Source of the DNA: a virus | Taxonomy: Duplodnaviria; Heunggongvirae; Uroviricota; Caudoviricetes | Strand: one strand, 5' to 3' | DNA: 64,000 nucleotides | IMG/VR virus record: IMGVR_UViG_3300031884_000008 | Part shown: one piece after another, positions 24,491-47,664 of the stretch | Layout: each line of letters starts with the position of its first letter | How positions within the stretch are numbered: position 1 is the stretch's first letter | Notes under the pieces: generated by a model | Seen by the model: only the letters and a program-made list of their open reading frames with translations | Told to the model about the DNA's origin: nothing | Databases searched by the model: none | Made by a program: the position numbers and the translations under genes

Positions 24491-24499
24491 TTCCCGAAC

Positions 24500-24506
24500 A
24501 TAAATA
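24500..24506 (+). promoter_or_regulatory. late-promoter-like ATAAATA box plus hairpin sequestering SD and ATG of the HNH gene
   Basis: acATAAATAcatatggagaaattcatATG; ACATATG/CATATGT 7-bp stem encloses the GGAG and start codon. Confidence 0.45.
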
Positions 24507-24523
24507 CATATGGAGAAATTCAT

Positions 24524-25459: not shown

Positions 25460-26544
25460 TTAAAATTAAAAAAATTAAAGTAGAACCAACCGATGTATAT
25501 GACTTATCTGTGCCTGAAACAGAATGTTTCTTTGCTAATAACATATTAGTTCATAACTGCGAGATCCTACTACCTACAAAGTCATTCAAGAGACTAGATG
25601 ATGAGGCCGGCCGAATTGCGCTGTGTACCTTAGGGAGTATTAATTGGGGTGCGTTCCGTAACCCAGAAGATATGCGCCGAGCATGTCGTATTCTACTAAG
25701 AAGTCTGAATAACATTTTGGATTATCAAGACTTCCTTTCTATTCAGTCTAAGTTATCGAATGACGAGATTCGTCCAATCGGTATCGGTGTAACTAATCTC
25801 GCATACTGGCACGCTAAGCGCGGATATAAGTACGGAGACTCAGATGCACTACAGGACGTAAAGAGTTGGGCAGAACACCAGACTTACTACCTCATGGAAG
25901 CAAATGTAGAATTGGCAAAAGAGCGTGGAAAGTGCATTGACTCTGACAAGACCCGCTATGGTCAAGGAATCTTTCCCTGGGAACTTAGAGCCAATGGTGT
26001 AAACGAGCTAGCAGACTTTAATCCTGAGCTTGATTGGGAATCACTACGATTTGAAATGAAAGAGTATGGTGTGCGAAACAGCACAGTTGGTGCCATTGCT
26101 CCGGTTGAATCTTCATCTGTTGCCATTAATTCAACTAATGGTATTGCACTACCAATGAGTTTGATTTCTGTTAAGGAATCAAAAGCGGGATCCTTCGTGC
26201 AAGTTGTCCCAGAATATCATAATATTAAGGTCAGAAAGAATTATCAGTTGATGTGGGATCAGGTTGATTGCGTCGAGTATCTTAAGACCTCTGCTGTTCT
26301 TGCTGCATACATGGATCAATCAATTTCAACTGATACGTTCTATAATCCAGCACATTTCCCTGATCGCAAGATACCAACTACGCTAATTGCTAAAAATTTG
26401 ATGCTAGCACATAAGTTCGGTCTCAAGACGCTTTATTATAGCCTCGTGTGTAAACAAGGTTCTAAAGAAGAAGCCGACGATGCACCTCTTATGCCTATAG
26501 ACTTTTTTGAAGATGAAGATTCCTGCGAGAGTTGTAAGTTATAG
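25456..26544 (+). CDS. nrdA: intein C-terminal half (34 aa, blocks F/G ...ILVHN) fused to NrdA C-terminal fragment
   Basis: VYDLSVPETECFFANNILVHN|CEILLPTK; C-extein resumes with CEI of the SNLC-x-EI active site at ~25558. Confidence 0.75.
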   Translation: MIKIKKIKVEPTDVYDLSVPETECFFANNILVHNCEILLPTKSFKRLDDEAGRIALCTLGSINWGAFRNPEDMRRACRILLRSLNNILDYQDFLSIQSKLSNDEIRPIGIGVTNLAYWHAKRGYKYGDSDALQDVKSWAEHQTYYLMEANVELAKERGKCIDSDKTRYGQGIFPWELRANGVNELADFNPELDWESLRFEMKEYGVRNSTVGAIAPVESSSVAINSTNGIALPMSLISVKESKAGSFVQVVPEYHNIKVRKNYQLMWDQVDCVEYLKTSAVLAAYMDQSISTDTFYNPAHFPDRKIPTTLIAKNLMLAHKFGLKTLYYSLVCKQGSKEEADDAPLMPIDFFEDEDSCESCKL

Positions 26545-26575
26545 CATGTAAACTATAAGTTTTCTGTAAACTATG

Positions 26576-26582
26576 ATAAATA
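26576..26582 (+). promoter_or_regulatory. late-promoter-like ATAAATA box inside an inverted repeat (CTGTAAAC...GTTTACAG)
   Basis: tgATAAATAagtttacaggagatttacATG. Confidence 0.4.
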
Positions 26583-26600
26583 AGTTTACAGGAGATTTAC

Positions 26601-27269
26601 ATGAACTATGAAAAAATATACAATACATTAGTAAGTAGAGGACAGAGTAGAATACTAGAAGGATATAGCGAGAAGCATCATATTGTTCCTAAATGTCTTG
26701 GTGGAACCGATGACGCATCTAACTTAGTATCATTGACTCCTGAAGAACATTATTTGTGTCATCTGTTATTAGTTAAACTGTATCCTAACAATATACGACT
26801 GGTAAAGGCCGCTATGTTTATGCTATCATCAAATAGTGAACAACAGAGAAACAACAAGTCATATGGCTGGTTAAAGAGACAATATTCCGAATATATGCGC
26901 GGTCCTAATAACCCGGCAAAACTAAACGGACCATGGAACAAGGGTATGACAGGCTATAAAAATAAAGTCAACTTTTCGGACGACACATTAAAATCAATGT
27001 CTACCCGAATGACGGGTGAAAAAAATCCATGTTCTGGTGTTAAGCCCTGGAATCATCCAAGAGCAACAGATTATTCTAAATCTGTTTGGAAACAAGCAGA
27101 AACGATTTACAATGTTTGGGTAGAAAACAATAAACCCTCGTACTGTAAGTTATATACATTAGTGAACGATAAGAGTTATATTAATGAAAGCAAAGTTATA
27201 GGACCGTATATGAATATGGTAAAATATTTTAGAAGTGGTTGGATTCCAACACAAGATACCGAGTTGTAA
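26601..27269 (+). CDS. HNH homing endonuclease
   Basis: YSEKHHIVPKCLGGTDDASNLVSLTPEEHYLCH. Confidence 0.65.
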   Translation: MNYEKIYNTLVSRGQSRILEGYSEKHHIVPKCLGGTDDASNLVSLTPEEHYLCHLLLVKLYPNNIRLVKAAMFMLSSNSEQQRNNKSYGWLKRQYSEYMRGPNNPAKLNGPWNKGMTGYKNKVNFSDDTLKSMSTRMTGEKNPCSGVKPWNHPRATDYSKSVWKQAETIYNVWVENNKPSYCKLYTLVNDKSYINESKVIGPYMNMVKYFRSGWIPTQDTEL

Positions 27270-27519: not shown

Positions 27520-28107
27520 AAAATGAAATTTAAAAATATCGTAGCAACAGCATTAGTATTATTCGCCGTCGGCGCCGGCGCAGTTTTAGCTGAGCCACTG
27601 CATGTCTGTAAAAATATTGACTATGCTCTATGTGCCGCAAGTCCAACTACGCCAACAGGTAAAACCATGAAGGTCAATGGCAAAACATTCAAAGAAGGCA
27701 TGGCAGCATGTCCAATACTTCACGGTGATGCTGCGGCCAACCTAAACCTGATGAATGGGTCATGTGATGCTCCTGGTCCAGGTAAAATTTGGAGTTTGTT
27801 TGGCATTCCAGCCCAGACCAGTTATCCACAACAACCCACTTGGGCGGTGGCACCTGCACAATTTAGAAGCTTCATTATTGGCACAACGCCTACAACCGGT
27901 ATGAGCAATATGTGGAGTTTTCCATGCGAGATCCAAGCACAAAAAGTCAATGGAGTAAAGTTGGCTTCGTGTTATGGACCTATCATGGAAAGTCCTTGGA
28001 CTAACGATCATGTTAAACCTGGCCAGATTGGATTTACCCAGGCCGCAGAAGGTGTGACATATCCGGTTGGTGGTAATGCTCCGGCTAACATTGGATCTAA
28101 AAAATAA
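27520..28107 (+). CDS. secreted Cys-rich protein (signal peptide), unknown function
   Basis: MKFKNIVATALVLFAVGAGAVLA signal-like N-terminus; 8 Cys; inserted between nrdA and nrdB. Confidence 0.45.
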   Translation, partial: KMKFKNIVATALVLFAVGAGAVLAEPLHVCKNIDYALCAASPTTPTGKTMKVNGKTFKEGMAACPILHGDAAANLNLMNGSCDAPGPGKIWSLFGIPAQTSYPQQPTWAVAPAQFRSFIIGTTPTTGMSNMWSFPCEIQAQKVNGVKLASCYGPIMESPWTNDHVKPGQIGFTQAAEGVTYPVGGNAPANIGSKK

Positions 28108-29453: not shown

Positions 29454-29753
29454 ATGAAGTTTGAAGAAAACGAAGTGTACTCGTTCAAGATGCACAGCGG
29501 CGAAGAAATGATCGCAACGTATTTGGGTATGGACGGTGATGAATTGATCATTCACAATCCGGTATCAGTCGCACCTGGTCCGCAAGGTATGGGACTCATT
29601 CAATCCATGTTTACTTCAGATACGAAGTCTGATCCTAGACTAAATAATAGCAGCTACTCACTAGTATGCAAGACTGATGCCACTATTACTGAAAAGTATG
29701 TGGAAGCAACGACTGGTCTAGTAGTACCTAAAAAGAAGTTTATCACGGGCTAA
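29454..29753 (+). CDS. hypothetical protein
   Basis: 99-aa ORF, coupled. Confidence 0.35.
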   Translation: MKFEENEVYSFKMHSGEEMIATYLGMDGDELIIHNPVSVAPGPQGMGLIQSMFTSDTKSDPRLNNSSYSLVCKTDATITEKYVEATTGLVVPKKKFITG

Positions 29754-30022
29754 TGGCAAAGCTATCCAGAAAAAACGATACGACGGAAGCTAATGGTAAG
29801 ATAGTTCGCGGGGCCAGTACCGTGTTTGCGAACGGAATTGCTGTTGGTTTGCATGTCAGCGACATCACTCCTCACCCTGGCGGAGGTAAGCATAATGCCT
29901 CTAAGACTACTGAAGGTAGTCCTAGCGTATTTGCTGATGGTGTCGCGGTCCTTCGTGTAGGTTCTGGGACTACATGTGGTCACAAAGTCAATCAGGGTAG
30001 TCCTGACGTGTTTGTGCCTTAG
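29753..30022 (+). CDS. PAAR-like small Gly-rich protein (gp5.4-like spike tip candidate)
   Basis: GSPSVFADGVAVLRVGSGTTCGH...GSPDVFV repeats resemble PAAR-domain organisation. Confidence 0.35.
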   Translation: MAKLSRKNDTTEANGKIVRGASTVFANGIAVGLHVSDITPHPGGGKHNASKTTEGSPSVFADGVAVLRVGSGTTCGHKVNQGSPDVFVP

Positions 30023-30030
30023 GATAAAAA

Positions 30031-32958
30031 ATGGCTGATTCAGGAAAACAAAGTCCCTTAGGTGTTAATGTACTGGGATCGCTGCTAGCTAACGCCGGCT
30101 TCGTCATCAATCCAGTAGCACAATCTTATATGGGAATCAGTAGGACTAATGCCGGATACGCATTTGGTAGTATACTGAATAATACAGTACTGCATCTACT
30201 CACGTGGGCAATAAATGACGGATATGTTCGCGGTTGGTTTCCGGGAACAACGTTAACTACGACAACATATAACAATCTTATATCTATTGGTGCTGACACT
30301 ATTCCTGCTCTAGGCAACTCGATGCCACCTACATATACTGTAACGGATCCTGCTGGTGTGTGGACTAATGCTGCACAAGCATACGGTTTACAGACCACAG
30401 GAAGTGCAGTTCTTCCTGGCCCTGCTACATCTGGTTATGGTAACTATAGTAATTCAATAGGAGATCCGCTTGAGGGGTATGGTGTTGTAGATCAACAACA
30501 AAATGCAACATGGTACCCTTATAATACAACTAATCCTAACAATTCGATCACGCAATGGGGATATATTAGACTTCATGCATTGCAGGCATGGAATGAATTT
30601 AACTGTAATGGTACTACTGTAAACACAACTACTCCGGAATATAAAGAATTTTGTGCATCATTTTCTAGTGCAGTTTCAGCAGCCGGTACTTCAAATCAAA
30701 CGATCAGTACGGTTGTAAACTCAAATACCTTCTTAGACGGAACATACAGCAACATGGATGACCTCATGAGTGCTGATATATCTGGTGTAAATCTTTCCAC
30801 TAAGGATTTTGGTACTGATCTAGAAAATTTAGGAAAGGCTATAGACCTAAAACAGATCGAGACGTTTGGTTTACCATCCAACCTACTCAGAACAATAGGT
30901 AAAAATTCAGCAGTCACGCAAGATTTGTCTTTGGCTCTTTTGGCTGCAGGATTAACCACTAAGGAAATATCTGACATTACGGGTGGAGTAACACCAAATG
31001 TATCTAAGGCACTAGAACAGAAAATCTATGGTGCATTTTTAATCATAACAGGTGAAAATTTAGCCCATGTTTTGGCACCTCTACAATGCGTGACACAAGG
31101 ACTAAACTCCTTAGCGGATCTACTAAATCTAAAGATGTTGTTCCCTATCAGCTATTCAGCATTAACTGTTCCAATCTATAATGCTATCGCAGGAACAACC
31201 AACAGCAAAACTTACTACCTCATTTATCAAAATGGCGGCGTCAATGATGCACTAGACACTCCTGCTCTACAAGAATATGTAGGAACAATCATTCCTAGTG
31301 GTAAGCCTCCTATTTTTGATAAAGCATCTAATCCTGAAAATTATACGGAGCTTCCTAAAGGATTCGCCTCATACCTGCAGGACATTATTCCATACGATCA
31401 GGCATTAGCCGCAGGCGCATTCTCATATACGATGAGACAAATTAGAAACATTCAAAATGTTGACATACAAAAATTCGCTAAAGTAGTTAAGGGTATTGAA
31501 AATACATCTAATCTAAATTTAGTCAATGGCACCAGTAAACCTACGGATCAGACGCAGATAGATTTTGCGACTAGTGTTCAGGCGCTAGGCAGCGGCCCTA
31601 GTGGATCGCTCACGCTTTCAGACTTTTTTGGATGCATGTCGGGCCTCCCTTACCCATGGCAACTCATAGAACAGCGAATTCAAGAAGCACAAACTGATAA
31701 CTTGGCTGCAATATATCGCGGATTATTTTTAGCTGTTACATGGGATCCGGCTATAGTAACAGTTCAATATACTACATATACTGTTGGTCCTCCGGGCCCA
31801 CTCACTACATACTATCATGTTACCGGAGTAACGCTCACTCATCCAGGTGGTGGATATATTCGCGGTGATGCACCTGTGCCTACAATAACACTGTCTAACG
31901 GCGGAACCGCAGTAGCCACTGTCGAAACCGGTGAGTTTGCACAGTCAGTAGATCACGTTAATACAGGGTACGGGAGAGTAACATCAGTAACACTAACATC
32001 ATCCGGTCCGGACTCCACGTCTATTCCTACCGTAACAATCGAATGCCCACCTACTAGTACATCGGGTGGAACTAATACACCAGCCGGAACAACTGGTTGG
32101 CCGAATCCAATGAATGCGGTAGTTCAGGGATATATCGATCAGGCTAATGCGGAAATAGCTTCTATCTTAGTAAACAAACCAGATGCTGCACAACACCTGA
32201 ATGCGTACTGGAACATTTTAGGAACCCAACTAGCAAGAGAACAGCGAACTCGATACACTTATGCACCTCCTGTATCGGTCCCTAAAGACTTTTTCTTAAA
32301 CGCATATCCTAGCACACAATCGTCCTTTGTAGATTCGCTACCTCAGATGGCACTAGACACTCGCCCTCATATGGCAGCACAGACATTAGAAGCAATTTCG
32401 GACTTGTCTACGGTCGGTGGTCAAAGCCTAGTAGCGCTACTGCGCCAAGAAAGAAATCAAGCCCGCTTGCAGCAAGTTGGTATTGATTTGGATAATAGTA
32501 TTGCAGATGTTCTTCCAAATCAAATTGCGCTCACTACAAACGGAACAACATCGAATGCAGTTAATGGTATTCCAAGTTGCGGTACTGAATATACGTTCCC
32601 TGCATGGCCTTCTAATATAGACGACACTGGTAATACCATAACGCCTAAACCTGCAGGGATTTATACGTCTTCAGAAGGGTTTCAACAGATTTCAGGATCA
32701 GCACCCGGCGATATTACTCAGATTCTAAATTGTAATCCAAATCCGGTTGCCGGCACTGTCGTTCCTGCTGGCCCAGTCGTTACTCCGCCGAGCAGCGAAA
32801 TAGTCATCATCGCTCCGGCGCCCGCATATGACCCTAATAATTTGCCACCGAATTTAGATCCAAATTACACTAGTACTACGTTGCTTCCGGCCACTCCTTC
32901 TATACCCGATGCAATTGCGCAGGTTACTGCTTGTAACTGTGATTGTTGGGTCAAATAA
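30031..32958 (+). CDS. large structural protein (baseplate/fibre candidate) with Pro/Thr-rich C-terminus
   Basis: 975 aa, Thr/Asn/Gly-rich, follows the PAAR-like gene. Confidence 0.45.
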   Translation: MADSGKQSPLGVNVLGSLLANAGFVINPVAQSYMGISRTNAGYAFGSILNNTVLHLLTWAINDGYVRGWFPGTTLTTTTYNNLISIGADTIPALGNSMPPTYTVTDPAGVWTNAAQAYGLQTTGSAVLPGPATSGYGNYSNSIGDPLEGYGVVDQQQNATWYPYNTTNPNNSITQWGYIRLHALQAWNEFNCNGTTVNTTTPEYKEFCASFSSAVSAAGTSNQTISTVVNSNTFLDGTYSNMDDLMSADISGVNLSTKDFGTDLENLGKAIDLKQIETFGLPSNLLRTIGKNSAVTQDLSLALLAAGLTTKEISDITGGVTPNVSKALEQKIYGAFLIITGENLAHVLAPLQCVTQGLNSLADLLNLKMLFPISYSALTVPIYNAIAGTTNSKTYYLIYQNGGVNDALDTPALQEYVGTIIPSGKPPIFDKASNPENYTELPKGFASYLQDIIPYDQALAAGAFSYTMRQIRNIQNVDIQKFAKVVKGIENTSNLNLVNGTSKPTDQTQIDFATSVQALGSGPSGSLTLSDFFGCMSGLPYPWQLIEQRIQEAQTDNLAAIYRGLFLAVTWDPAIVTVQYTTYTVGPPGPLTTYYHVTGVTLTHPGGGYIRGDAPVPTITLSNGGTAVATVETGEFAQSVDHVNTGYGRVTSVTLTSSGPDSTSIPTVTIECPPTSTSGGTNTPAGTTGWPNPMNAVVQGYIDQANAEIASILVNKPDAAQHLNAYWNILGTQLAREQRTRYTYAPPVSVPKDFFLNAYPSTQSSFVDSLPQMALDTRPHMAAQTLEAISDLSTVGGQSLVALLRQERNQARLQQVGIDLDNSIADVLPNQIALTTNGTTSNAVNGIPSCGTEYTFPAWPSNIDDTGNTITPKPAGIYTSSEGFQQISGSAPGDITQILNCNPNPVAGTVVPAGPVVTPPSSEIVIIAPAPAYDPNNLPPNLDPNYTSTTLLPATPSIPDAIAQVTACNCDCWVK

Positions 32959-33015
32959 AATAGTTTGACATCATAGTTCATGTTTGTTATTTACGTATAA
33001 CAACGGAGTACAATC

Positions 33016-33288
33016 ATGTGGACACTCGCTAAGGTCAAGAACGGGTTTCATGACCTCCCCAACGAACGCTTTCATACGTTCGTCATTAAAAATGACGGAG
33101 AAATCGTAGGCGAACTTAAGTTCGACCGTGCCCGATGGAAGTCTGCCGGCGGTCCCGCATGGAAGGGTACTCTGTTCAAGACTTCTCTGCACAACAGAAC
33201 TATGTCTTCTGGATGCACCGGTGTCACGTATTACAGCAAGAAGAAGGAAGACGTGCTTACCTGGTTTAAGACCGGTGAGGTTCGATAA
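33016..33288 (+). CDS. hypothetical protein
   Basis: ORF with RBS (ggag) upstream. Confidence 0.35.
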   Translation: MWTLAKVKNGFHDLPNERFHTFVIKNDGEIVGELKFDRARWKSAGGPAWKGTLFKTSLHNRTMSSGCTGVTYYSKKKEDVLTWFKTGEVR

Positions 33289-33494
33289 TGGTTGTTAAAC
33301 CTCGATCACGTACTAAATCTCGATCTGCTCGAATTAAAGATTCTGAAAAGAAACTTAAAAAGATACACGAAGAGGTAACTGTTATTTGGCGCAATGCACC
33401 TAACCAAGCTGAAAAAATGGTGCTGCTTGATATACTTTCCGGATTGGATCATGCTATGTCAGCTATAAAATCCCACAAGGAAATTTCCAACTAA
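33288..33494 (+). CDS. hypothetical basic protein
   Basis: Coupled ORF. Confidence 0.3.
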   Translation: MVVKPRSRTKSRSARIKDSEKKLKKIHEEVTVIWRNAPNQAEKMVLLDILSGLDHAMSAIKSHKEISN

Positions 33495-33575
33495 AATATC
33501 GTTTGGTAATTTTACGGTTGACATAATCTTTTCGTGAGTTTATTGTAAGAAATAATCAATTGAGGAGATATCGAC

Positions 33576-33989
33576 GTGCTTACTCTATCTGACATCGACA
33601 ACATGTTTCCTGAAACTCGGGAAGGTTCCGTGTATTCGGATCTGTTTAAGGACGTTAACGGATTCCGCCCGCGCGCCGAACTTGCTCAATTTGCAAATCT
33701 CAATGATTTCCGAAACAGCTGGGACGCTCTAGTAATTGATTTGGAAAACCAAATGGAGCAGGATCGCAAGGCTAAGCTAGCAGCGGTAGCCCGACTCAAC
33801 AAGGATATCGAACTTCTTCGTACCTATTTCCCTCATGCTACTCAGTTGGATATGATGCGTTACCTCGCTGACGCCAACGGTTGCTACAGTGACAACCAGG
33901 GTTTCAGTTACTATGATTGGGAATTTTTGGACTACAAAATGGGCGTTAAGTATGGTACGTGTGAGGAATTGGCTAATGCTGAACGTTGA
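33576..33989 (+). CDS. hypothetical protein
   Basis: 137-aa ORF with GGAG RBS. Confidence 0.35.
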   Translation: MLTLSDIDNMFPETREGSVYSDLFKDVNGFRPRAELAQFANLNDFRNSWDALVIDLENQMEQDRKAKLAAVARLNKDIELLRTYFPHATQLDMMRYLADANGCYSDNQGFSYYDWEFLDYKMGVKYGTCEELANAER

Positions 33990-34283
33990 TCGATTTGCAT
34001 TTGGAGTCGGAATCCTTGGTATAATTTATTTTGGACTCCATCTGATGGTATCCTTAGTATTTCACCGCACACTAATGTAACGGAGATTTAACATGTGTGA
34101 CGAATGTGACTGTGAGCACAAGACTATGGATTTTGATGGTTCTACTACCGAAAGTAAGAATCCAACAATTCTTTTTTGGAATAGACTAGGTATGGCTGCT
34201 ATTATCTTCTCGCTCTGTATGGGCATTGGGTGCTGCACAGCAATTGCCAACCTTCATCAATAGTTATTATTTAAATAGTTAAC

Positions 34284-34290
34284 ATAAATA
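34284..34290 (+). promoter_or_regulatory. late-promoter-like ATAAATA box
   Basis: aacATAAATAtactcacatataaggagtatgtttATG. Confidence 0.4.
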
Positions 34291-34314
34291 TACTCACATA
34301 TAAGGAGTATGTTT

Positions 34315-35151
34315 ATGAAAAAGTTTTTTGCAGTAGTATCAATACTGCTAATATCTCTATGTCTTTATGATACAAGCTACGCATTTACACCTCGCGCACC
34401 TTTGCCTATTGCGAGTTGTTCAGTACATGCACCTTTTGGACCGCCGCAAAGCACTAAACCAGTTCAATCTATATGCCGTCAGGCATATCTGGTTGGGTAT
34501 GACGCTAGTTCAAAAATACCAGAATACGTAGAGTGGACACTTACTCCGCAAGCTGCGTTAGGTTGTGTTGTGCGATCAAATGCATTTACCGCTGACCCAT
34601 CTATAGCAGGCGGAGCAACGCCTAACGACTATGCAGGCTCCGGTTACGATAAGGGCCACATGGCGCCCGACGGCGACCAAAGTTGGAATCAACAAGTTGA
34701 GTATGAGTCATTTCTAATGACTAATATGACACCTCAGGCTCCTTCTCTCAATCGCGGGATTTGGAAATTGTTAGAAACTTCCTTTCGTGGTTGGGCGTTC
34801 CAACAGAACCGTCCATTCACCGCAATTTCCGGAGCAATCTATGCAGCTGGAGATAAAAAGATTGGGTCCGGCGTCGTTGTGCCTCATGCGTTCTACAAGA
34901 TTGTCATTGATGATCAAACTGGAATGGTAGCAGGTTGGTATTTCCCTCATACGGCTCCGTATCCTAATTTAGGAAACGATCTAACTAAGTATCGTACATC
35001 TATTGCCGCTATTGAAAAGGAATCAGGTGTAATTGTAGCATTACCTAAGAATGCTCAGGAACTTCCGGTAGGAAAAGAATGGCCGGTTGATTTTGGTAAA
35101 CTGACTGCTTCTAAGAAGGCAGCATGTGGACCAAGTGCGAGTGTAGACTAA
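34315..35151 (+). CDS. secreted DNA/RNA non-specific endonuclease (Serratia nuclease / Endonuclease_NS family)
   Basis: Signal peptide MKKFFAVVSILLISLCLYDTSYA; catalytic GYDKGHMAPDGD (DRGH-type) motif. Confidence 0.65.
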   Translation: MKKFFAVVSILLISLCLYDTSYAFTPRAPLPIASCSVHAPFGPPQSTKPVQSICRQAYLVGYDASSKIPEYVEWTLTPQAALGCVVRSNAFTADPSIAGGATPNDYAGSGYDKGHMAPDGDQSWNQQVEYESFLMTNMTPQAPSLNRGIWKLLETSFRGWAFQQNRPFTAISGAIYAAGDKKIGSGVVVPHAFYKIVIDDQTGMVAGWYFPHTAPYPNLGNDLTKYRTSIAAIEKESGVIVALPKNAQELPVGKEWPVDFGKLTASKKAACGPSASVD

Positions 35152-35156
35152 CAAAA

Positions 35157-35190
35157 ATACAGGTGTTATTTCAATAGCACCTGTATTTTG
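35157..35190 (+). terminator. rho-independent terminator
   Basis: ATACAGGTG-loop-CACCTGTAT followed by TTTT. Confidence 0.65.
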
Positions 35191-35325
35191 CGCAATAAAT
35201 AGCTTGAGAGGTGGCTGACATGAATCTAAACAATATGGGCGCCGGACGAAAGCTGTTAAATCAAATATTAATGCAAGGTAAGTTACGGACGATGGGTTGG
35301 TCTCCGCAGCAGCAGCAAGAAACAC

Positions 35326-35637
35326 TTGCTAAACAAAAAAATCCACATAACCCTAAATCAAGGCCAACCAATCGTGAGTGATTCCGAAAGCAGACTTAAG
35401 AAATCTAAACGTAGAGCAGCGGCGAACACCGCAGCCAAGAAACAATACAGTATCGCAAAATCACATGGAATGAATCCTGATCCTAACAAAATGCATCGGT
35501 ACGCAAAAATGCATTCTTTGAATTGCGGAGATCCAAATTGTATGATGTGTGGAAATCCTCGTAAGTTTTTCAATGAAATAACTATGCAGGAGAAAAAATT
35601 TATTGATGGTGTCGATTTTGGGTACAAAGACGATTGA
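35326..35637 (+). CDS. small zinc-finger-like protein
   Basis: CGDPNCMMCGNPRKF. Confidence 0.3.
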   Translation: MLNKKIHITLNQGQPIVSDSESRLKKSKRRAAANTAAKKQYSIAKSHGMNPDPNKMHRYAKMHSLNCGDPNCMMCGNPRKFFNEITMQEKKFIDGVDFGYKDD

Positions 35638-35817
35638 CTTTACGTCTAGTCGCTGATAAATTGTAGTTATCGATACAGAGAAGGCTCTGTACGAAACTAA
35701 GAGGCTACCTGTGAATAAGAAATCAGTATATGGTTTTCTAATCGAGTTCATCAAGGGTTTTGCAGTAGTTATGGTTCCTCTTATGTTATGGTTCCTCTTA
35801 TTTGGTTCCGTGCTATC

Positions 35818-35958
35818 ATGCCCTGGATGATTAACATTCACAACGACTTCGCGATCTTCGGCGCACTGCTGGGAACCATGCTCGTTGTGATTCTTACCGC
35901 AACACTAATCATTGAATTTGTGTTCAATATTATCAAACAACCTCAATCAAAGGACTAA
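35818..35958 (+). CDS. small single-TM membrane protein (46 aa) immediately upstream of the SPFH gene (NfeD-like partner?)
   Basis: MPWMINIHNDFAIFGALLGTMLVVILTATLIIEFVF; not in ORF track (<60 aa). Confidence 0.3.
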   Translation: MPWMINIHNDFAIFGALLGTMLVVILTATLIIEFVFNIIKQPQSKD

Positions 35959-35965
35959 TCAAACT

Positions 35966-36814
35966 ATGAATAACATTAAGACGGTTCTTATCGTCGGTGC
36001 TGCCGCTGCGGCTCTTGCTGCATGTGGTCAAGTGCAACCCGGATATGTTGGCCTTAAGGTTAATCAATATGGTTCAGGTTCTGGTGTTGACCCTAATGTT
36101 CTAGGTGTCGGTACGTATTTTACCCCAATGGGAACTCAAATTATCGAGTTTCCGGTTTATACTCAGCAATATATCTACACCGCTTCTAAGAATGAAGGCA
36201 AGGCTGTCAACGAAGAATTTACGTTCAATGACAAGCAAGGTCTGAATATGGGTGCCGACATTGCTGTAAGCTATTCGGTTGACTCTAGCAAGGCTCCGGT
36301 TCTTTATCAGAAGTTCCGCTCTACTGCCGAAGGTCTTGTCGAAAATCAAATTCGTAACGAAATTCGTAACGATCTGAACGACATTGCTTCTGCCTATGCG
36401 GTCGATGAAATCTTCGGTCCTAAGAAGAAGGAACTGTTGGATAAGGTGCAGGTTGAAGTCGCTGCTCACTTCAAGCCTTACGGTCTGAACATCGAGCGTC
36501 TGACTTGGGCGAATACTATTCGTATGCCCCAATCGATTCACGATCAAATCAACCAACGTATCGCTAACGAACAGCAAGCTAAGGCTGCTGAGGCTAACGT
36601 GATCACGGTTGAAGCCAATGCTCGCTCTGCGGTTGCTAAGGCTAAGGGTGAAGCTGATGCTAACGCACTGCTTGCTCAATCGATTAAGGCTAGCCCAGAA
36701 CTCGTCAAGCTTCGTGCGATTGAAGCCTGGAAGGAAACTGGTGGTAAGATGCCGACTTATGTTGGCGCTGGGGCTGAAATCCCGATCATCGGCAATCTGA
36801 TGAAGGGTAACTAG
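35966..36814 (+). CDS. SPFH/Band-7 (stomatin/prohibitin-like) lipoprotein
   Basis: Lipobox AALAAC|GQ; SPFH core GYVGLKVNQYG... Confidence 0.65.
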   Translation: MNNIKTVLIVGAAAAALAACGQVQPGYVGLKVNQYGSGSGVDPNVLGVGTYFTPMGTQIIEFPVYTQQYIYTASKNEGKAVNEEFTFNDKQGLNMGADIAVSYSVDSSKAPVLYQKFRSTAEGLVENQIRNEIRNDLNDIASAYAVDEIFGPKKKELLDKVQVEVAAHFKPYGLNIERLTWANTIRMPQSIHDQINQRIANEQQAKAAEANVITVEANARSAVAKAKGEADANALLAQSIKASPELVKLRAIEAWKETGGKMPTYVGAGAEIPIIGNLMKGN

Positions 36815-36815
36815 T

Positions 36816-37100
36816 ATGGCCCGCATGCTATCGATGATTATCGGGCTTGCTTCTATCGTGGCGCTAGCGGGGTGTAATAAACCCGCTAGCGGTTCGTTTG
36901 TTCAGCAAGGCTCTGATACATCAAGCGATCCTTCAATCCCTGCTGATTACAAGCTAGCTAATCCATGCCCACCAGGAGTTCCTTCGGTTTACTTGCGCCC
37001 GGACGGGTCTTACGTGGTCAAGAACTCAGAAGATCATGATAACTTTATTGTGATCGCTCAGACACCAGAAGATTTCTGTAAGTCTTTCCAAAAGAACTAG
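36816..37100 (+). CDS. small lipoprotein
   Basis: MARMLSMIIGLASIVALAGC lipobox. Confidence 0.45.
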   Translation: MARMLSMIIGLASIVALAGCNKPASGSFVQQGSDTSSDPSIPADYKLANPCPPGVPSVYLRPDGSYVVKNSEDHDNFIVIAQTPEDFCKSFQKN

Positions 37101-37164
37101 TTATACATAATATGTGCTAAATACTTGACAATAAGAGGATTATTGCCATTTAGGACATAAAAAA

Positions 37165-40100
37165 ATGAAGCACGCGAAGGCTATTTTACTAGCAGTTACC
37201 GCTATAGTTTCCACACTCACACTCACAGCTTGCTTTACATCTAGACAACAAACTGCAAACGCAGAAAATATTCCAAACAATCCTGACTACAATTGGGACG
37301 TTCGTCCGATTTTGTCACAAAATTGCTTTGCTTGTCACGGGCAAGGAACACAGAAGGCTGGTCTACGGTTAGACATACAAAAAGCCGCTTACGATTCCAT
37401 ACCAGAAGACAAAACCAAACACGCTTTTGTTCCGGGTAATCCTAGTAAAAGCGAGGCATTTAAACGCATTACTTCGACTGATGCAGACTACAGAATGCCA
37501 CCTAAAGATTCTCATAAAACCCTGTCTGCACATGAAATCGCAATTATAAAGCGATGGATTGAACAAGGTGCTCACTATAAACAACACTGGGCATACATAA
37601 CACCGACAGTAGTAAAGCCAGAAAGAACTAAATGGGACAAGCAAGCTGTCAACGCCATTGATCGATATATCTATGCCAAATTAGCTACAGAAGGGTTATC
37701 TCCTTCTGCGGAAGCGGACAAAGAAACGCTTATAAATCGTGTTTATCTAGACCTAACTGGACTTCCTCCCTCGCTTCAAGAAGTAGATGCATTTATCAAT
37801 GACACCTCTCCTAATGCTTACGAGAAGATAGTAGATCATCTTTTATCATCTACCGAGTATGCAGAACGCCAAACAAATATTTGGATGGATGTTGCTCGGT
37901 ATGCAGACAGCCGCGGAGGACTAAATGACGGGGAACGAGGAATCAGTTTCCCGTATCGTGATTGGGTCATCAATGCGTTTAAACGCAACATGCCTTATGA
38001 TGAGTTTGTGACCTGGCAGCTTGCCGGCGATAAACTTAATAATGGTCATCCGACTCGTGAGCAATTACTTGCAAGTGCCTTCCTTAAAGAAGGTCGTCAA
38101 GATTCAGAGGGCGGATCAATTGATGAAGAATTTAGAACTAATTATGTCCAAGAAAGAACAGAATTAATAGGTAAAGACTTTTTGGGTCTAACCGTTGGGT
38201 GCGCCAAATGCCACAATCACAAATATGATGTGATTGCCCAATCAGATTACTATTCATTAGCTGGATTCTTTAATCAGATGGACGAGCGAGGACAAGGATC
38301 CGGTTCTCGTGGTACACCCGGCGGCGCCACAATCGAATGGCCGACTCCGCTGCAATCAAAAAGACTTGAGGCCGCCCATGCAATTACAGTAGCTAAAGAA
38401 CAAGCTTATCAAGTTGCTTTACAATCTGCGCAGATCAATAAAATAGCATTAGACACAAACCGAACAACATTTATACAATCATCTATTCAAGCAGACACAC
38501 AAGCCTATTATCCATTAGATGCAGGGTACAAAGATTCATTTGATGAACTGTACCTAGATCCGCAACCAACGGCACCTGGTGAACCTCTACCTAATCAAAA
38601 AAATAACTTTCCCGGATTAACTGCGGCTCAAGTTACTGCCATATTACAAAATAAAATTCTTGCAGATGTAAAGGTCGGTAAACCAACTCCTAGTATGACA
38701 CCTAAAGATGATTCTATGTCTCCTAAAACCATCAAGTCTTCAGATATAAAGGACCCTAAAAAAGCACCCCTTCGCCGCTCACGATTCGGCGGTATGGACG
38801 GAGACATTGCTGCAATGAAGGCGGACCCTAATCTTCCGAGAATAGCTTCTCATGAAATCGATTGGGCTATGGAACAGCTTGTAGCATCCGGATTTACTGA
38901 TGATCGTTTAGGAGACCCACAACGTATCATGAAACGTCAACTTCCACAATGGATTCATGAAGATTCACTGTTGTGGACAGATGCAGGGATTCAGGGTGAA
39001 AAGCGTGGATTTGTAAGTAATGTAAAGTTTGTTTCCGGTCACAAGGGACAGGGAATTCAACTAAAAGATTCAGTTTTTGCTGCGGACAAAAGTGTAGGTA
39101 TGTTTGAAAGAACTCAACCATACACATTAGATTTTTGGTTGAAGCTTCCAAAGAAACCATATTACGACAATACTCGTCCATTAGGACCGTCTGCATCTAT
39201 AATTTATAACAACGGCGGCATTGAAGGGCTTGGTTATGAATTAACCATGTCTAATAATAAAATGGCATATTCTATTACTCACCAAGCTCCAACCGACATG
39301 CTTAGAATTTCTACGATTCAAGATGTTCCCACAGGTCGTTGGGTTCATATAACTTCTACTTATGACGGTAACTCCAAAGCGGCTGGTATGCATCTATATT
39401 TTGATGGTGTAGAACAAAAAGCTCAAATTGATCATGACCACTTAACACGTAGCGCATTTCCGCGCGGCGGAAACAGTCAGTTTGTGAGTTATTTTGGGTT
39501 GTCTGCTGGAGTTAACTTTAATAGACCGGAATTAGTAGACGGCGCCATTGATGAGCTACGTGTGATTACACGGGCATTGACTCCTACGGAAATTACTTAT
39601 CTGCAGGATCCTGCACTACTTAAACAAGTTCCGGCACAGCAAGCAATATCTGATATGAAGTTAATTATGGCTGAACTGGATCCTGCGGTTCAACGAGCCT
39701 GGCAAGAGATGACAGATGCACGACTTGCTGAACAACGCATAGAAACTCCGATCTATCGTGTCATGGTTGCAGGAGATCAGGCTATTCCTCGTAAAAACTT
39801 CGTGTTAGATCGTGGGGTCTATAACAGCTATCTACAAGAAGTAAAACCTCAGGCACCGAACCGAGTATTTGCATGGAACGAAACTTTACCTAGAGACCGT
39901 TTGGGACTAACTGAATGGATGTTTGATCCGAAAAATCCGCTCGTTGCTAGGGTTTATGTAAACCGCATATGGCAAAATCATTTCGGTACTGGTATAGTTC
40001 AAACGGTAGATGATTTTGGTACACAAGGAACTAATCCAACTCATTCGGAACTACTTGATTACCTAGCCGTAGAGTTTATTAGGTCTGGTTGGGATATAAA

Positions 40101-40836
40101 GCACATACAAAAACTAATAGTTATGTCTGCAACTTATCGTCAAAATTCTAATATTACGCATGACGCATTAGAAAAAGATCCACGAAATTTTCTTCTAGAA
40201 CGAGGACCACGTTTTAGAATGCCAGCAGAAGTTATTCGTGATAATGCATTAGCTGCCTCTGGTCTGTTACTTAAGAAAGTGGGCGGAGATGCAGTATTCC
40301 CATATGCTCCAGATGCAATTTGGGATGGTGTAGCGCAAGGTGCGGTTATTTATCCTACAAATGAACCGGATGATCAAATGCACAGACGATCTATGTATAC
40401 CTATATAAAGCGGAACTCACCAGTAGCCAACTTAGTACCGTTTGACATGCCAGATCGCTACAATGCACAAGTTCTACGTCCAGTGTCAACTACACCTCTG
40501 CAATCATTGGTTATGTTGAATGACGTTCAATTTATGGAAGCTTATCGTAAGCTATCTGAAAGAGCAATCAAGTCTTCTGCAAATCAAGATCAACAACTGA
40601 TAACGATGTTCCGTTTGGCTGTTCGGCGCCATCCAAATGATAATGAACTATCAGTATTGAGGAAATATCGTGTTGCTGAAATTAGCAGAATGCAGAATTC
40701 CCCTGATGAAGTAAAAAAGATACTTTCTATGGGGGTTTCTCCTACCGATACTTCGATTGATCCGGCCCAACTCGCAGCAATGACTATGGTCACTGCAAGC
40801 GTCATGAATACCCCAGACGCATATACTTTGCACTAA
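37165..40836 (+). CDS. PSCyt1 (planctomycete cytochrome c) - DUF1549/PSCyt2 - LamG-like - DUF1553/PSD1 multidomain lipoprotein
   Basis: Lipobox LTAC; DVRPILSQNCFACHGQGTQKAGLRLD (PSCyt1 CxxCH); LDLTGLPPSLQEVDAFI...WMDVARYADS...PYDEFVTWQLAGD (DUF1549); TTPLQSLVMLNDVQFMEAYRKLSER (DUF1553). Confidence 0.7.
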   Translation: MKHAKAILLAVTAIVSTLTLTACFTSRQQTANAENIPNNPDYNWDVRPILSQNCFACHGQGTQKAGLRLDIQKAAYDSIPEDKTKHAFVPGNPSKSEAFKRITSTDADYRMPPKDSHKTLSAHEIAIIKRWIEQGAHYKQHWAYITPTVVKPERTKWDKQAVNAIDRYIYAKLATEGLSPSAEADKETLINRVYLDLTGLPPSLQEVDAFINDTSPNAYEKIVDHLLSSTEYAERQTNIWMDVARYADSRGGLNDGERGISFPYRDWVINAFKRNMPYDEFVTWQLAGDKLNNGHPTREQLLASAFLKEGRQDSEGGSIDEEFRTNYVQERTELIGKDFLGLTVGCAKCHNHKYDVIAQSDYYSLAGFFNQMDERGQGSGSRGTPGGATIEWPTPLQSKRLEAAHAITVAKEQAYQVALQSAQINKIALDTNRTTFIQSSIQADTQAYYPLDAGYKDSFDELYLDPQPTAPGEPLPNQKNNFPGLTAAQVTAILQNKILADVKVGKPTPSMTPKDDSMSPKTIKSSDIKDPKKAPLRRSRFGGMDGDIAAMKADPNLPRIASHEIDWAMEQLVASGFTDDRLGDPQRIMKRQLPQWIHEDSLLWTDAGIQGEKRGFVSNVKFVSGHKGQGIQLKDSVFAADKSVGMFERTQPYTLDFWLKLPKKPYYDNTRPLGPSASIIYNNGGIEGLGYELTMSNNKMAYSITHQAPTDMLRISTIQDVPTGRWVHITSTYDGNSKAAGMHLYFDGVEQKAQIDHDHLTRSAFPRGGNSQFVSYFGLSAGVNFNRPELVDGAIDELRVITRALTPTEITYLQDPALLKQVPAQQAISDMKLIMAELDPAVQRAWQEMTDARLAEQRIETPIYRVMVAGDQAIPRKNFVLDRGVYNSYLQEVKPQAPNRVFAWNETLPRDRLGLTEWMFDPKNPLVARVYVNRIWQNHFGTGIVQTVDDFGTQGTNPTHSELLDYLAVEFIRSGWDIKHIQKLIVMSATYRQNSNITHDALEKDPRNFLLERGPRFRMPAEVIRDNALAASGLLLKKVGGDAVFPYAPDAIWDGVAQGAVIYPTNEPDDQMHRRSMYTYIKRNSPVANLVPFDMPDRYNAQVLRPVSTTPLQSLVMLNDVQFMEAYRKLSERAIKSSANQDQQLITMFRLAVRRHPNDNELSVLRKYRVAEISRMQNSPDEVKKILSMGVSPTDTSIDPAQLAAMTMVTASVMNTPDAYTLH

Positions 40837-40847
40837 GAGGAATAAAC

Positions 40848-42311
40848 ATGAATAATGATCCAAATGAATTAATAAATTTTGCCCGCCGGTCACTTTTAGG
40901 CACGAGTATGGGATTGGGTGTGATAGCCGGCGCCGAATTATTAGGTGCTACCAAATCACAAGCAGCCAGTGCTGCACCTTCCAGCGAGACTGGCCCAGAT
41001 TTAGGTAAGTTAACTACAGGTCAATTTCCAGCAAGAGCAAAGCGTGTAATTGACATTCACATGAAAGGAGCAGTATCCCAAATTGATACTTTTGATTATA
41101 AGCCAGAAGTTATCAAGCGCCATGGGCAAGAAATTCCACCTTCTGTAAAGGGTCATGGCAAAATATCATCAATGTCTAATGGACAAACTTCTTTCCCTCT
41201 TATGGGTCCTATTGCTCCATATAAACAATATGGTCAATGTGGTCGTTGGGTTTCAGACCTAATGCCACATATAGGGTCTATATCAGATGATCTAACCTTC
41301 ATTCATTCTATATGGACTCCCCAAGTTAATCACGATCCAGCAGACATTCTCATGCATACTGGGTTTCAATTAGCGGGCCGCCCTGCCGCTGGAGCATGGG
41401 TTAATTATGCATTAGGGACTGATAACTCTAATCTCCCTTCATATGTAGTCATGAAATCTCAGTTCCAATCAGCAGGGGTTGGCGCTACTCAGGCTACTTG
41501 GTCAGCAGGATTTTTGCCCTCTAATCACCAAGGTGTTGAATTTCGTTCTGGTAATTCTCCTGTTCTTTATGTAAGCAATCCAGATGGCATTAGTCGTGAA
41601 GAACGAAGAAGTCAAATTGATCTTATCGGTGAATTATCGCGCTATCAGTATCAGACGACCGATGACCCAGAAGTCTTAGCCAAAATTGCTCAATATGAAA
41701 TGGCATATCGTATGCAAGATTCTGTACCTGAGGTAACTGATCTATCTGATGAACCACAATATATACTCGATATGTATGGTCCTCAGGTTCATCAACCAGG
41801 TAGCTTTGCTCGCAATTGCCTATTAACACGTCGTCTTATTGAACGCGGTGTTAAGTATGTCAACCTAATTCAAGTTGGATGGGATCACCATAATGGTATT
41901 GCCCGCCGACATCCTAGTGACTGTTGGGCAGTAGATCAGCCATCTGCTGCTTTGGTGACGGATTTAAAGCAGCGAGGACTTCTAGATGATACTCTTGTAA
42001 CTTGGAAGGGTGAATTCGGTAGAACTGTATACGCGCAAGGAGGAATAAATCCAAACTGCGGGCGTGACCATCACGGAGGAAACTTTACGATGTGGATGGC
42101 CGGAGGCGGAACAAAACCTGGCATCGAATACGGCAAATCAGATGATTTCTCTTATAATGTTGTGGAAAATCCAGTAGAAGTTCACGATTTAAATGCTACT
42201 GTGTTATATCTTTTAGGAATTGATCACAAACAACTTACATACCATTATCAAGGTAGAGATTTCCGTTTAACTGATACTGCAGGTAAAGTAGTTCAAGGAA
42301 TAATTGCTTAA
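40848..42311 (+). CDS. DUF1501 (sulfatase-like) protein with Tat signal, canonical partner of DUF1549/DUF1553 proteins
   Basis: RRSLLG twin-arginine motif; DIHMKGAVSQIDTFDYKPE...GRDHHGGNFTMWMAGGG. Confidence 0.7.
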   Translation: MNNDPNELINFARRSLLGTSMGLGVIAGAELLGATKSQAASAAPSSETGPDLGKLTTGQFPARAKRVIDIHMKGAVSQIDTFDYKPEVIKRHGQEIPPSVKGHGKISSMSNGQTSFPLMGPIAPYKQYGQCGRWVSDLMPHIGSISDDLTFIHSIWTPQVNHDPADILMHTGFQLAGRPAAGAWVNYALGTDNSNLPSYVVMKSQFQSAGVGATQATWSAGFLPSNHQGVEFRSGNSPVLYVSNPDGISREERRSQIDLIGELSRYQYQTTDDPEVLAKIAQYEMAYRMQDSVPEVTDLSDEPQYILDMYGPQVHQPGSFARNCLLTRRLIERGVKYVNLIQVGWDHHNGIARRHPSDCWAVDQPSAALVTDLKQRGLLDDTLVTWKGEFGRTVYAQGGINPNCGRDHHGGNFTMWMAGGGTKPGIEYGKSDDFSYNVVENPVEVHDLNATVLYLLGIDHKQLTYHYQGRDFRLTDTAGKVVQGIIA

Positions 42312-42369
42312 GGCTTGACATTCAGCGTATATTATCGTATTATTCGTTACATAAGAGTTATGCGCGCCT

Positions 42370-42450
42370 GAGGCTGAATGGTTTCACAAGAGTCTCTAAA
42401 GCTCAAGATTGCAGGTTCAAATCCTGTCGGGCCCGCCACTCTTAAAATAT
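42370..42450 (+). pseudogene. tRNA 3'-half remnant (T-arm/acceptor ...GCAGGTTCAAATCCTGTCGGGCCCGCCA) without matching 5' half
   Basis: Canonical T-loop and CCA end seen but no complementary acceptor 5' strand upstream. Confidence 0.35.
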
Positions 42451-47519: not shown

Positions 47520-47593
47520 TGTCCCTTCGTCTAATGGTAAGACATCCGTTTTTGGTGCGGATTATCGAGGTTCGAGTCCTTGGGGGACAGCCA
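47520..47593 (+). tRNA. tRNA-Gln(UUG)
   Basis: Cloverleaf by eye; anticodon loop TTTTGGT; CCA encoded; TATAAATA 13 nt upstream. Confidence 0.7.
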
Positions 47594-47637
47594 AATTATA
47601 TGCCGTGTTAGCTCATACAACATACCTATTAATAGGC

Positions 47638-47644
47638 ATAAATA
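47638..47644 (+). promoter_or_regulatory. late-promoter-like ATAAATA box
   Basis: gcATAAATAactgagctaggacaaagcttATG. Confidence 0.4.
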
Positions 47645-47664
47645 ACTGAGCTAGGACAAAGCTT

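Follow-up and report, generated by a model that had tools for sequence, protein, structure and literature searches.

In the NfeD-SPFH operons, such as E. coli YbbJ-QmcA and B. subtilis YuaF-FloT, the SPFH gene directly follows the gene of a small membrane protein, and the two are translationally coupled. The NfeD partners carry an OB-fold domain, and the SPFH proteins linked to them face the cytoplasm. For the SPFH cages that face the periplasm (HflK/C and prohibitin), control of FtsH or another client is the one biochemical role established. SPFH genes are also found in phages: a paper of 2006 described a band 7 lipoprotein family in T4-like phages (PMC1524935), and the role of phage SPFH genes was termed poorly understood or unclear in 2020 and again in June 2026 (PMC7760394, PMC13239085). 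An SPFH classification from 2009 describes periplasm-facing 'p-prohibitins' without NfeD partner and does not cover lipoproteins or phage members; neither phages nor lipoproteins are mentioned in a survey of SPFH proteins in P. aeruginosa. Searching the literature we found no tested function for any phage SPFH protein, the nearest case being PM0222 from a Pasteurella prophage, which has been investigated as a virulence factor, and a search for Caulobacter together with SPFH returned only papers on FliL and an irrelevant 'SPFHQR' motif. Here we analyze a 64,000-nt stretch of DNA (in the following: the window) from the viral record IMGVR_UViG_3300031884_000008, in which an SPFH lipoprotein gene follows a small gene for a protein with two transmembrane (TM) segments, the latter being split by a 17-bp duplication.

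We prefer to read the region, with a probability of roughly 0.6, as a mosaic island in which three or more independent units for exported proteins lie together, and not as one four-gene system; the phage that carries it is a jumbo myophage whose host is probably a freshwater bacterium of the Caulobacteraceae type. A first-pass annotation had grouped positions 34315–37100 into an envelope-targeted cluster of four consecutive genes for a secreted nuclease, a 46-aa membrane peptide, an SPFH lipoprotein and a second lipoprotein. That annotation placed the nuclease, the 46-aa open reading frame (ORF), the SPFH gene and the second lipoprotein at the right coordinates, and all four products look like exported or membrane proteins, with a signal-like N-terminus, a hydrophobic segment and two lipoboxes, respectively. 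The genes are not consecutive, however: a terminator-like hairpin and two non-exported ORFs, both overlooked before, separate the nuclease gene from the others. Also, the exported run reaches past both ends of the cluster, from 34093–34263 to 37165–42311. Of 91 candidate ORFs in the window, 11 were flagged in a crude screen for signals and TM segments, and seven of these lie within 34.3–42.3 kb. Just upstream of this cluster and of the nuclease gene, the screen missed a Cys-rich protein of 56 aa with a C-terminal hydrophobic segment (34093–34263, + strand, as are all features of the island described below); it was called as a gene in two independent assemblies (L003 and L004) and may be a further membrane protein of the island. 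Exported proteins do cluster here, but the cluster comes down to about three multi-gene units side by side.

The proximity of the four genes could also mean that their products act in concert, for example as a periplasmic nuclease held at an SPFH-organised entry site where it would exclude superinfecting phages. All products are exported or membrane-bound and encoded within 3 kb, and in the Vi01-like phage PhiSH19 the SPFH gene adjoins a gene annotated as 'superinfection exclusion protein' (PMC3220722). A comparison with relatives of the SPFH protein, which are found in the uncultured phages L001 (82% identity), L002 (62%) and L028 (45%) and in Caulobacterales chromosomes (∼62%), bears on this idea in both directions. 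L028 encodes a homologous exported nuclease (FDRGHMTP, 35% identical, with signal peptide) ∼1 kb from its own block of two-TM, SPFH and lipoprotein genes, but there the nuclease lies downstream and not upstream of the block, so that the gene order differs from that of the window. L001 has the same block and no nuclease in the surrounding 10 kb. The two kinds of gene also differ in abundance: SPFH homologues were detected by tblastn in at least 500 phage records (23–37% identity), whereas homologues of the nuclease family (Endonuclease_NS) occur in only 37 of 50,697, which makes the SPFH gene more than 10 times commoner. Chromosomal pairs of two-TM and SPFH genes have no nuclease among the genes called within ∼6 kb, and a PADLOC search with seven proteins of the region yielded only a chance-level match (0.006) to Csm6, while Pfam showed no Imm-family match. 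Together with the terminator-like hairpin and the two unrelated ORFs between nuclease and SPFH module, these observations make a single concerted envelope system improbable. Superinfection exclusion, remodelling of membranes and breakdown of extracellular DNA, the roles suggested in the first-pass annotation, are guesses. What is conserved everywhere is the two-TM gene together with the SPFH gene, and the small lipoprotein gene is added in this phage lineage only.

The two intervening ORFs encode non-exported proteins of 53 aa (35220–35381, called as a gene in four assemblies) and 87 aa (35374–35637) and overlap by 8 nt (stop/start GTGAGTGA). Homologues of the shorter one were found in L001 (51%) and L028 (47%). 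The longer one is basic, bears a Cys motif of the type C-x4-C-x2-C (CGDPNCMMCGNP), matches phrog_4499 (2.9e-9) and has a 46% identical homologue in L028, where both ORFs are kept as an overlapping pair (7081–7510).

The SPFH gene (35966–36814) encodes a lipoprotein of 282 aa of the prohibitin or HflK/C-like type. Its assignment, already made in the first-pass annotation, was borne out by profile, sequence and fold searches, which all agree. The ORF matches Pfam Band_7 (PF01145) with 1.4e-25 (90.8 bits at a cutoff of 23.6) and phrog_200 'lipoprotein' with 4.8e-63; among 154 homologues, a precomputed PF01145 assignment was present on all 120 listed. Homologues support the ATG at 35966 (MNNIKTVLIVGAAAAALAAC) as start codon. 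The 46-aa peptide was said to overlap the start of the SPFH gene; it ends at 35958 and therefore does not. The lipobox reads ALAAC20 and its Cys is conserved to at least 90% in alignments of 23 and 35 sequences. In an AlphaFold2 (AF2) model (pLDDT 86.9) strands at residues 20–105 are followed by helices at 107–172 and one long helix of 54 residues (189–242). Foldseek searches with this model returned prohibitin (2e-15), stomatin, erlin, HflK/C, QmcA and flotillin with probability 1.00 and 245–312 aligned columns, and by sequence prohibitin-2 was the sole match in the PDB. The ORF is intact and retains the columns that are invariant across the family. GC content at third codon positions (GC3) is 0.45 in the SPFH gene and 0.47 in the small lipoprotein gene behind it, compared to 0.33 in the nuclease gene and 0.27–0.30 in two large genes further downstream; a later acquisition or a different codon selection could account for this.

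By these properties the SPFH gene is a further member of the long-known, uncharacterized phage 'band 7 lipoprotein' family. Its phrog_200 relatives phiCbK gp238, phi1026b gp48, N4 gp20 and those of Vi01-like and RaK2-like phages likewise have a lipobox at the N-terminus, an SPFH domain and a long coiled coil and, as in the window, a small membrane ORF directly upstream. The window differs from them in its split partner gene, and the nearest catalogued phage SPFH protein is only 37% identical. The best full-length structural matches are the subunits of the HflK/C-FtsH and prohibitin-m-AAA cages (prohibitin 8rrh, 2e-15; HflK/C 7vhq, 9cz2 and 7wi3), which share with the window protein the order of SPFH domain, long helix and C-terminal segment as well as the predicted non-cytoplasmic topology. 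Since the whole chain follows the lipoprotein signal, the protein must lie outside the cytoplasmic membrane, as do HflK/C and prohibitin. However, it is anchored by a lipid on Cys20, whereas HflK/C and prohibitin use an N-terminal TM helix, and one SPFH gene is present in the window in place of the K/C or PHB1/2 pair of the known cages. The NCBIfam model for HflC (TIGR01932) scored 12.7 bits on the window protein at a cutoff of 134.4.

Directly upstream we found the remains of a two-TM gene that is interrupted by an exact 17-bp tandem duplication: positions 35768–35784 are identical to 35785–35801 (GTTATGGTTCCTCTTAT; TRF period 17, 2.0 copies, 100% match). The duplication shifts the frame and so distributes the gene over two frames. 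Deleting one copy in silico restores an ORF of 76 aa with two TM segments that matches the hidden Markov model (HMM) of the partner family described below with 1e-10. The N-terminal half (35711–35830, 39 aa) consists of TM1 and an out-of-frame tail and begins with a GTG 6 nt after AAGAGG. The C-terminal half (35788–35958) has possible starts at ATG 35788, within the second repeat copy (56 aa), at 35818 (46 aa) and at ATG 35827 (43 aa), the last of which overlaps the stop of the N-terminal half as ATGA. This half contains TM2 and the conserved loop motif MPWMINIHND and is homologous to the intact two-TM partner of L001. Unsplit counterparts lie directly upstream of the SPFH gene in L001 (90 aa), L002 (81 aa) and L028 (71 aa). 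The 46-aa peptide reported previously thus exists as an ORF with one hydrophobic segment (35818–35958), but it is the C-terminal half of a split two-TM gene of ∼76 aa and not a gene of its own. The same duplication was present base for base in four other assemblies of the window phage (two from JGI, two from Logan), so that an assembly error confined to one sample can be dismissed. A programmed frameshift across the duplication was considered and rejected: repair of the frame needs a shift of +1 or −2, and no slippery heptamer was seen in the sequence.

A frameshifted partner gene raises the question of whether the SPFH module is a decaying remnant, that is, non-functional cargo with a pseudogene in front and the lipoproteins as free riders. 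The gene is frameshifted in every assembly examined, and gene callers passed over the region in three of the four assemblies. Against this, the SPFH ORF itself is intact, 82% identical to that of L001 and unchanged at the family-invariant columns, and both partner halves are still open, the C-terminal one offering in-frame ATGs including that in the ATGA overlap. Moreover, an unbroken partner gene with the same loop motif is present in the likely host, and its product could make up for the broken one. We therefore regard decay of the module as unlikely. In our preferred reading the split would be tolerated in one of two ways: either the halves are made as two single-TM peptides, for which the ATGA overlap would allow coupled translation, and still work, or the host partner substitutes for them.

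The split gene belongs to a family that accompanies SPFH genes widely. In about 32 of 37 non-redundant IMG/VR SPFH loci a small ORF with at least two hydrophobic segments, mostly two TM segments, ends not more than 45 nt from the start of the SPFH gene. The same pair occurs in phi1026b (gp49-gp48), Vibrio phage CKB-S1, N4 (gp19-gp20), Klebsiella phage Seu621, a P1-like phage and an Stx2a phage, and in two unrelated bacterial chromosomal loci, where it lies amid genes for nitrate assimilation, ArsC, an M23 peptidase and Ada/AlkA. As defined here, partner proteins have 57–100 aa, two TM segments and a conserved inter-TM loop, and their genes end within ∼45 nt of the SPFH start. We built an HMM from 21 partner sequences, leaving out the window, and ran it on 1308 six-frame segments: the window frame 35719–35955 was the only significant match (1.9e-9). 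The window gene thus fits the family by HMM and position, though it is broken by the duplication. With ORFs of N4, the P1-like phage, the Stx2a phage and Seu621 the model gave values between 1e-6 and 3e-5. Matching ORFs upstream of the SPFH gene carry no annotation in two deposited genomes, namely 1215–1460 in the locus from the P1-like phage (L092, MH422554; 1.5e-6) and 1145–1444 in that from the Stx2a phage (L094, LC567842; 1.7e-5), which indicates that the partner gene has been missed in phage annotation. The loop motif between the TM segments reads FRAIMPWMINIHND in the window, VRIAIPDLINAHDT in a Caulobacteraceae metagenome-assembled genome (MAG), TPWLVNQDSS in phi1026b and LLPSMVSALDS in N4. 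Both termini of the partner are positively charged, which suggests that the conserved loop faces the periplasm.

Compared with Pfam, the repaired window partner and four homologues gave chance-level matches to membrane proteins only (E-values up to 1), with neither NfeD (PF01957) nor Imm_superinfect among them; NCBIfam returned sub-threshold noise only. From its sequences the partner therefore appears to be a conserved and apparently undescribed family for which Pfam and NCBIfam hold no model. The likeness to NfeD-SPFH pairs that had been proposed for this locus was right in spirit, as a small membrane peptide does act as operon partner of the SPFH gene, but the partner is not NfeD: it has no PF01957 match and lacks the OB-fold tail. 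It is a bare hairpin of two TM segments, 57–100 aa long, with a conserved, predicted periplasmic loop. With the NfeD operons it shares its place immediately in front of an SPFH gene and the translational coupling to it. Among the fold matches of the window SPFH model was the QmcA subunit of the solved QmcA-YbbJ complex (8z5g); the window protein is exported, in contrast to the cytoplasm-facing SPFH proteins of the NfeD operons.

With its two TM segments, charged C-terminus and length of ∼76 aa the repaired partner resembles a class II holin, and the small lipoprotein encoded behind the SPFH gene is Pro-rich near its N-terminus in the manner of an o-spanin. One may thus think of a non-canonical lysis cassette with a two-TM holin and lipoproteins as outer-membrane, spanin-like parts. 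Several findings speak strongly against it. Homologous pairs sit amid chromosomal housekeeping genes, where a holin would be lethal, and in annotated phages the pair lies amid early or replication genes (for example N4 gp19-20): it adjoins the DNA polymerase gene in CKB-S1, DnaB in the P1-like phage and int/xis in the Stx2a phage. A Staphylococcus phage likewise has its SPFH gene beside the DNA polymerase gene, but with a different one-TM gene upstream. The SPFH protein is a lipoprotein and not a type II membrane protein as an i-spanin would be, and none of the neighbours scanned belongs to an endolysin, holin or spanin family. We consider a lysis function very improbable, which agrees with the first-pass annotation on this point.

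How the module might work can be sketched from these data. As the SPFH lipoprotein is exported and lipid-anchored and corresponds over its full length to a subunit of the prohibitin or HflK/C type, it would form a ring or cage at the inner membrane, on its periplasmic side. The partner would be a hairpin with both ends in the cytoplasm and would dock to the cage with its periplasmic loop (P-x-L-I/V-N/S-x-x-D), marking the enclosed membrane patch. In E. coli phage members the residue following the lipid-modified Cys (position +2) is Asp (LTGC-DR, LVGC-DR). By the E. coli sorting rule, Asp at +2 retains a lipoprotein in the inner membrane. Retention of these members there would fit a complex with an inner-membrane partner. 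The phage pair is probably made early in infection, given its position amid early or replication genes in annotated phages, and would most likely substitute for, or co-assemble with, the host's own copy. By analogy with the known cages, it would wall off or stabilize an inner-membrane patch or control a membrane client such as FtsH. Of the conceivable functions, control of FtsH or another client is, by that analogy, the one we would put first, though at clearly less than even odds; stabilization of the membrane is a weaker candidate, about level with some other function, and exclusion of other phages seems unlikely.

More generally, and tentatively, we propose that the two-TM hairpin with its periplasmic P-x-L-I/V-N/S-x-x-D loop may be the dedicated partner of inner-membrane SPFH lipoproteins, the two together forming a non-NfeD 'periplasmic cage' module of Proteobacteria and of hundreds of phages including N4, P1-like and Stx2a phages. 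They would use it, probably at an early stage of infection, to enclose a piece of inner membrane or to govern a client such as FtsH; in the window phage the partner would have been fissioned by the 17-bp duplication and would work as two single-TM peptides or through the host partner.

The small lipoprotein gene (36816–37100) begins 2 nt after the SPFH stop and encodes 94 aa with the lipobox ALAGC20, in agreement with the second lipoprotein of the first-pass annotation; the lipobox is conserved in the proteins P0242, P0244, P0245 and P0275. In a word-indexed search of 5.8 billion proteins its only relative was the gene at the same position in L001 (63%). L028 has at this place a lipoprotein of 97 aa with the same two-Cys pattern, without similarity at BLAST level. 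A profile search of 1.84 billion representatives added another four small relatives, of which three have a lipobox, and the relatives share LA[ND]PCPxGVPxVYxRPDGxY...TPxEFC. About 60 WD40-repeat proteins in the same search were discarded as spurious, since they share only the blade-like motif V-x-S-V-x-x-x-P-D-G. The corresponding segment of the window (36957–37070, residues ∼48–85; GVPSVYLRPDGSYVVKNSEDHD) resembles a WD40 blade, which we judge to be motif convergence and not homology. After a linker of ∼20 aa the protein consists of a domain of ∼50 aa with four strands, a helix and two conserved Cys. The AF2 model of this domain (pLDDT about 85–90) found no fold match, all E-values being above 1. 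The bacterial two-TM and SPFH loci have no such gene, and the small lipoprotein is a lineage-specific add-on from a rare family.

The nuclease gene (34315–35151) starts at the second ATG, 7 nt after AAGGAG, and encodes a predicted exported, non-specific DNA/RNA endonuclease of 278 aa. It matches Pfam Endonuclease_NS (PF01223) with 3.8e-37 (128.5 bits at a cutoff of 23, profile positions 18–215 of 223) and phrog_14168 'nuclease' with 2.4e-34. The closest solved structures are Anabaena NucA (1zm8, 2.6e-19), EndoG, EXOG and Serratia nuclease. In the alignment with 1zm8 GYDKGHMAP falls on GYARGHIAP, TNMTPQ on TNMMPQ and NRGIWKLLE on NRNTWGNLE. The catalytic His, the Mg2+-ligand Asn (in TNMTPQ) and the conserved Glu (in NRGIWKLLE) are thus kept, as in NucA, the Serratia marcescens nuclease and EndoG. 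This upholds the earlier identification of a Serratia-type nuclease; its active-site motif, however, had been given as DRGH and reads DKGH, with Lys in place of Arg. By eye and hydropathy the N-terminus (MKKFFAVVSILLISLCLYDTSYA|F) resembles a Sec/SPase I signal: Lys/Arg in the n-region, then a hydrophobic stretch, with small residues occupying −3 and −1 and a predicted cleavage after SYA23. In its signal-like N-terminus the protein resembles the secreted bacterial Endonuclease_NS enzymes, which belong to the beta-beta-alpha-metal class of nucleases. A gene for a NuiA-like inhibitor was not identified.

Directly after the stop codon follows an intrinsic-terminator-like hairpin (35154–35189) with a 16-bp stem, an A-tract before and a U-tract after it; its predicted folding energy is −19.8 kcal/mol (z −7.12), and none of 200 shuffled sequences was as stable. 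A simple pattern scan for terminators failed to pick it up, and the corresponding scan for promoter-like sites found 25 compared to 22.8 in shuffled sequences, that is, no excess. Because of the hairpin and U-run directly behind it, the nuclease gene looks monocistronic. The enzyme would be a Sec-exported, Mg2+-dependent nuclease of the NucA/Serratia type that folds outside the cytoplasm, as the four Cys of the mature part suggest, and is active only there, which would spare the phage's own replicating DNA. It would digest nucleic acid in the periplasm or the medium, most likely host DNA and RNA released at lysis. It is a further Endonuclease_NS member and as such a rare but known kind of phage gene: the 37 phage records with homologues are mostly of large phages (RaK2/K64-1-like, YerA41, RP13, Phosso, XaC1), and some label the protein 'periplasmic' or 'precursor'. 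The window protein is not more than 35% identical over more than 70% of its length to these catalogued phage nucleases (the 'periplasmic DNA/RNA non-specific endonuclease' of RaK2/K64-1, YerA41, RP13).

Downstream of the small lipoprotein gene a third unit consists of a gene for a 1223-aa protein with PSCyt1, PSCyt2, LamG and PSD1 domains (37165–40836; lipoprotein-type signal LTAC) and a gene for a 487-aa DUF1501 protein with a twin-arginine-like signal (40848–42311; RRSLLGTSMGLG). The Pfam models for PSCyt1, PSCyt2, PSD1 and DUF1501 all lie far above their cutoffs, with PSD1 at 2.9e-89 and PSCyt2 at 1.3e-78 besides Laminin_G_3 and PSCyt1 in the first protein, and DUF1501 at 3.3e-147 in the second. 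DUF1501 is the usual companion of PSCyt/PSD1 proteins, and such pairs are typical of Planctomycetes, Verrucomicrobia and some Proteobacteria; domain set and gene order agree with those of the chromosomal pairs on Caulobacteraceae-type contigs. The window pair, in contrast, is phage-borne and its codon usage is fully converted to the low GC of the phage. The PSCyt protein is 67–75% identical to Caulobacteraceae-type chromosomal genes and found no match by tblastn in the 50,697 phage records; the DUF1501 protein is 85–90% identical to Caulobacteraceae MAG proteins, and in three Caulobacteraceae-type loci (L088–L090) the DUF1501 gene likewise follows a PSCyt-LamG-PSD1 gene. GC3 of the phage copies is 0.27–0.30 versus about 0.90 in bacteria (0.27 versus 0.91–0.94 for DUF1501), at ∼65% nucleotide identity. 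The pair was apparently captured from a Caulobacteraceae-type host; if so, we infer that the capture is old and that the protein has been kept under constraint. A single bacterial contig of 352 kb (GC 0.67) holds both the two-TM and SPFH pair and the PSCyt and DUF1501 pair, and to judge by the sequences a freshwater Caulobacteraceae-type bacterium is probably the host. Directly after the DUF1501 stop a segment on the + strand (42364–42435) matches the Rfam tRNA model with 34.6 bits (gathering score 29) and is not called by ARAGORN; possible explanations are a degenerate tRNA or a trace that the capture left behind.

The remainder of the window is that of a large phage. A GC content of 0.42, a tail sheath protein of 1220 aa, a tail tube protein, ribonucleotide reductase (RNR) subunits broken up by homing-endonuclease ORFs and 28 tRNA genes were found in the window. 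Several independent metagenome assemblies encode the identical SPFH protein, and the contigs with it reach 314 kb. As megablast with positions 30000–42400 gave zero matches in the 50,697 phage records, the source is an uncultured jumbo myophage. The gene of the RNR large subunit (within 22835–27269) is split into 22835–24490 and 25456–26544 by a homing-endonuclease ORF (24524–25459); its second part shows a weak match to intein splicing and is followed by a second homing endonuclease (26601–27269). A PAAR-motif protein and a 975-aa protein without Pfam match occupy 29753–32958, and the latter has a 58% identical counterpart in L028 (294–3179) that also lies just upstream of the SPFH module. 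The 28 tRNA genes form an island (47520–62393) interspersed with HNH, GIY-YIG and other homing-endonuclease ORFs and with a TilS-like PP-loop ATPase (52204–52881); such an island is what one would expect of an AT-rich phage whose host is GC-rich. Outside the mosaic island two other proteins look exported, one of 194 aa with a signal-like N-terminus (27523–28107) and a lipoprotein of 127 aa with the lipobox LAAC (50915–51298), both without PHROG or Pfam match. Other accessory genes of the mosaic island region encode a peroxiredoxin, a RimK-like ATP-grasp enzyme and a glutaredoxin.

A number of points weigh against the reading as a mosaic island with an active SPFH module. The window SPFH protein has Gly at position +2, which by the E. 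coli rule would sort it to the outer membrane and away from its inner-membrane partner, although this rule may not be that of Caulobacterales. The split partner may simply be a pseudogene and the module may be decaying in this phage. Cage formation and contact with the partner are conjectural, the structural model being that of a monomer, and signal peptides and lipoboxes were assigned by eye and from hydropathy. The host assignment is based on one contig and on protein identities to MAGs. The exchange of Arg for Lys in DKGH could lower the activity of the nuclease. Finally, in both the window phage and the related L028 the nuclease gene is only a few kb away from the SPFH module, so that a loose functional link between these units is possible.

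As far as this window is concerned, the analysis chiefly sets the record straight: what was taken for one cluster is a patchwork, and the supposed 46-aa peptide is one half of a gene split in two. Three elements appear to be new: the conserved family of non-NfeD partners, the splitting of its member in this phage by an exact duplication, and the presence of a PSCyt/DUF1501 pair in a phage. The last is arguably the more unusual item. It is a phage copy, kept under strong constraint at the protein level, of a very abundant kind of gene pair, and this offers a new angle on what such pairs do. SPFH lipoprotein genes are present in at least 500 catalogued phage genomes, among them T4-like, N4-like, P1-like, Stx, Vi01-like and jumbo phages and even haloarchaeal viruses. 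The conserved partner, the host copy of the pair and the retention signal of the enterobacterial members lead to a two-protein model that is testable in tractable phages, for example with N4 gp19-gp20. If the hairpin is indeed the dedicated partner of these lipoproteins, the reason for SPFH genes in phages, a problem that dates back to 2006 at the latest, would become accessible to experiment for the first time.

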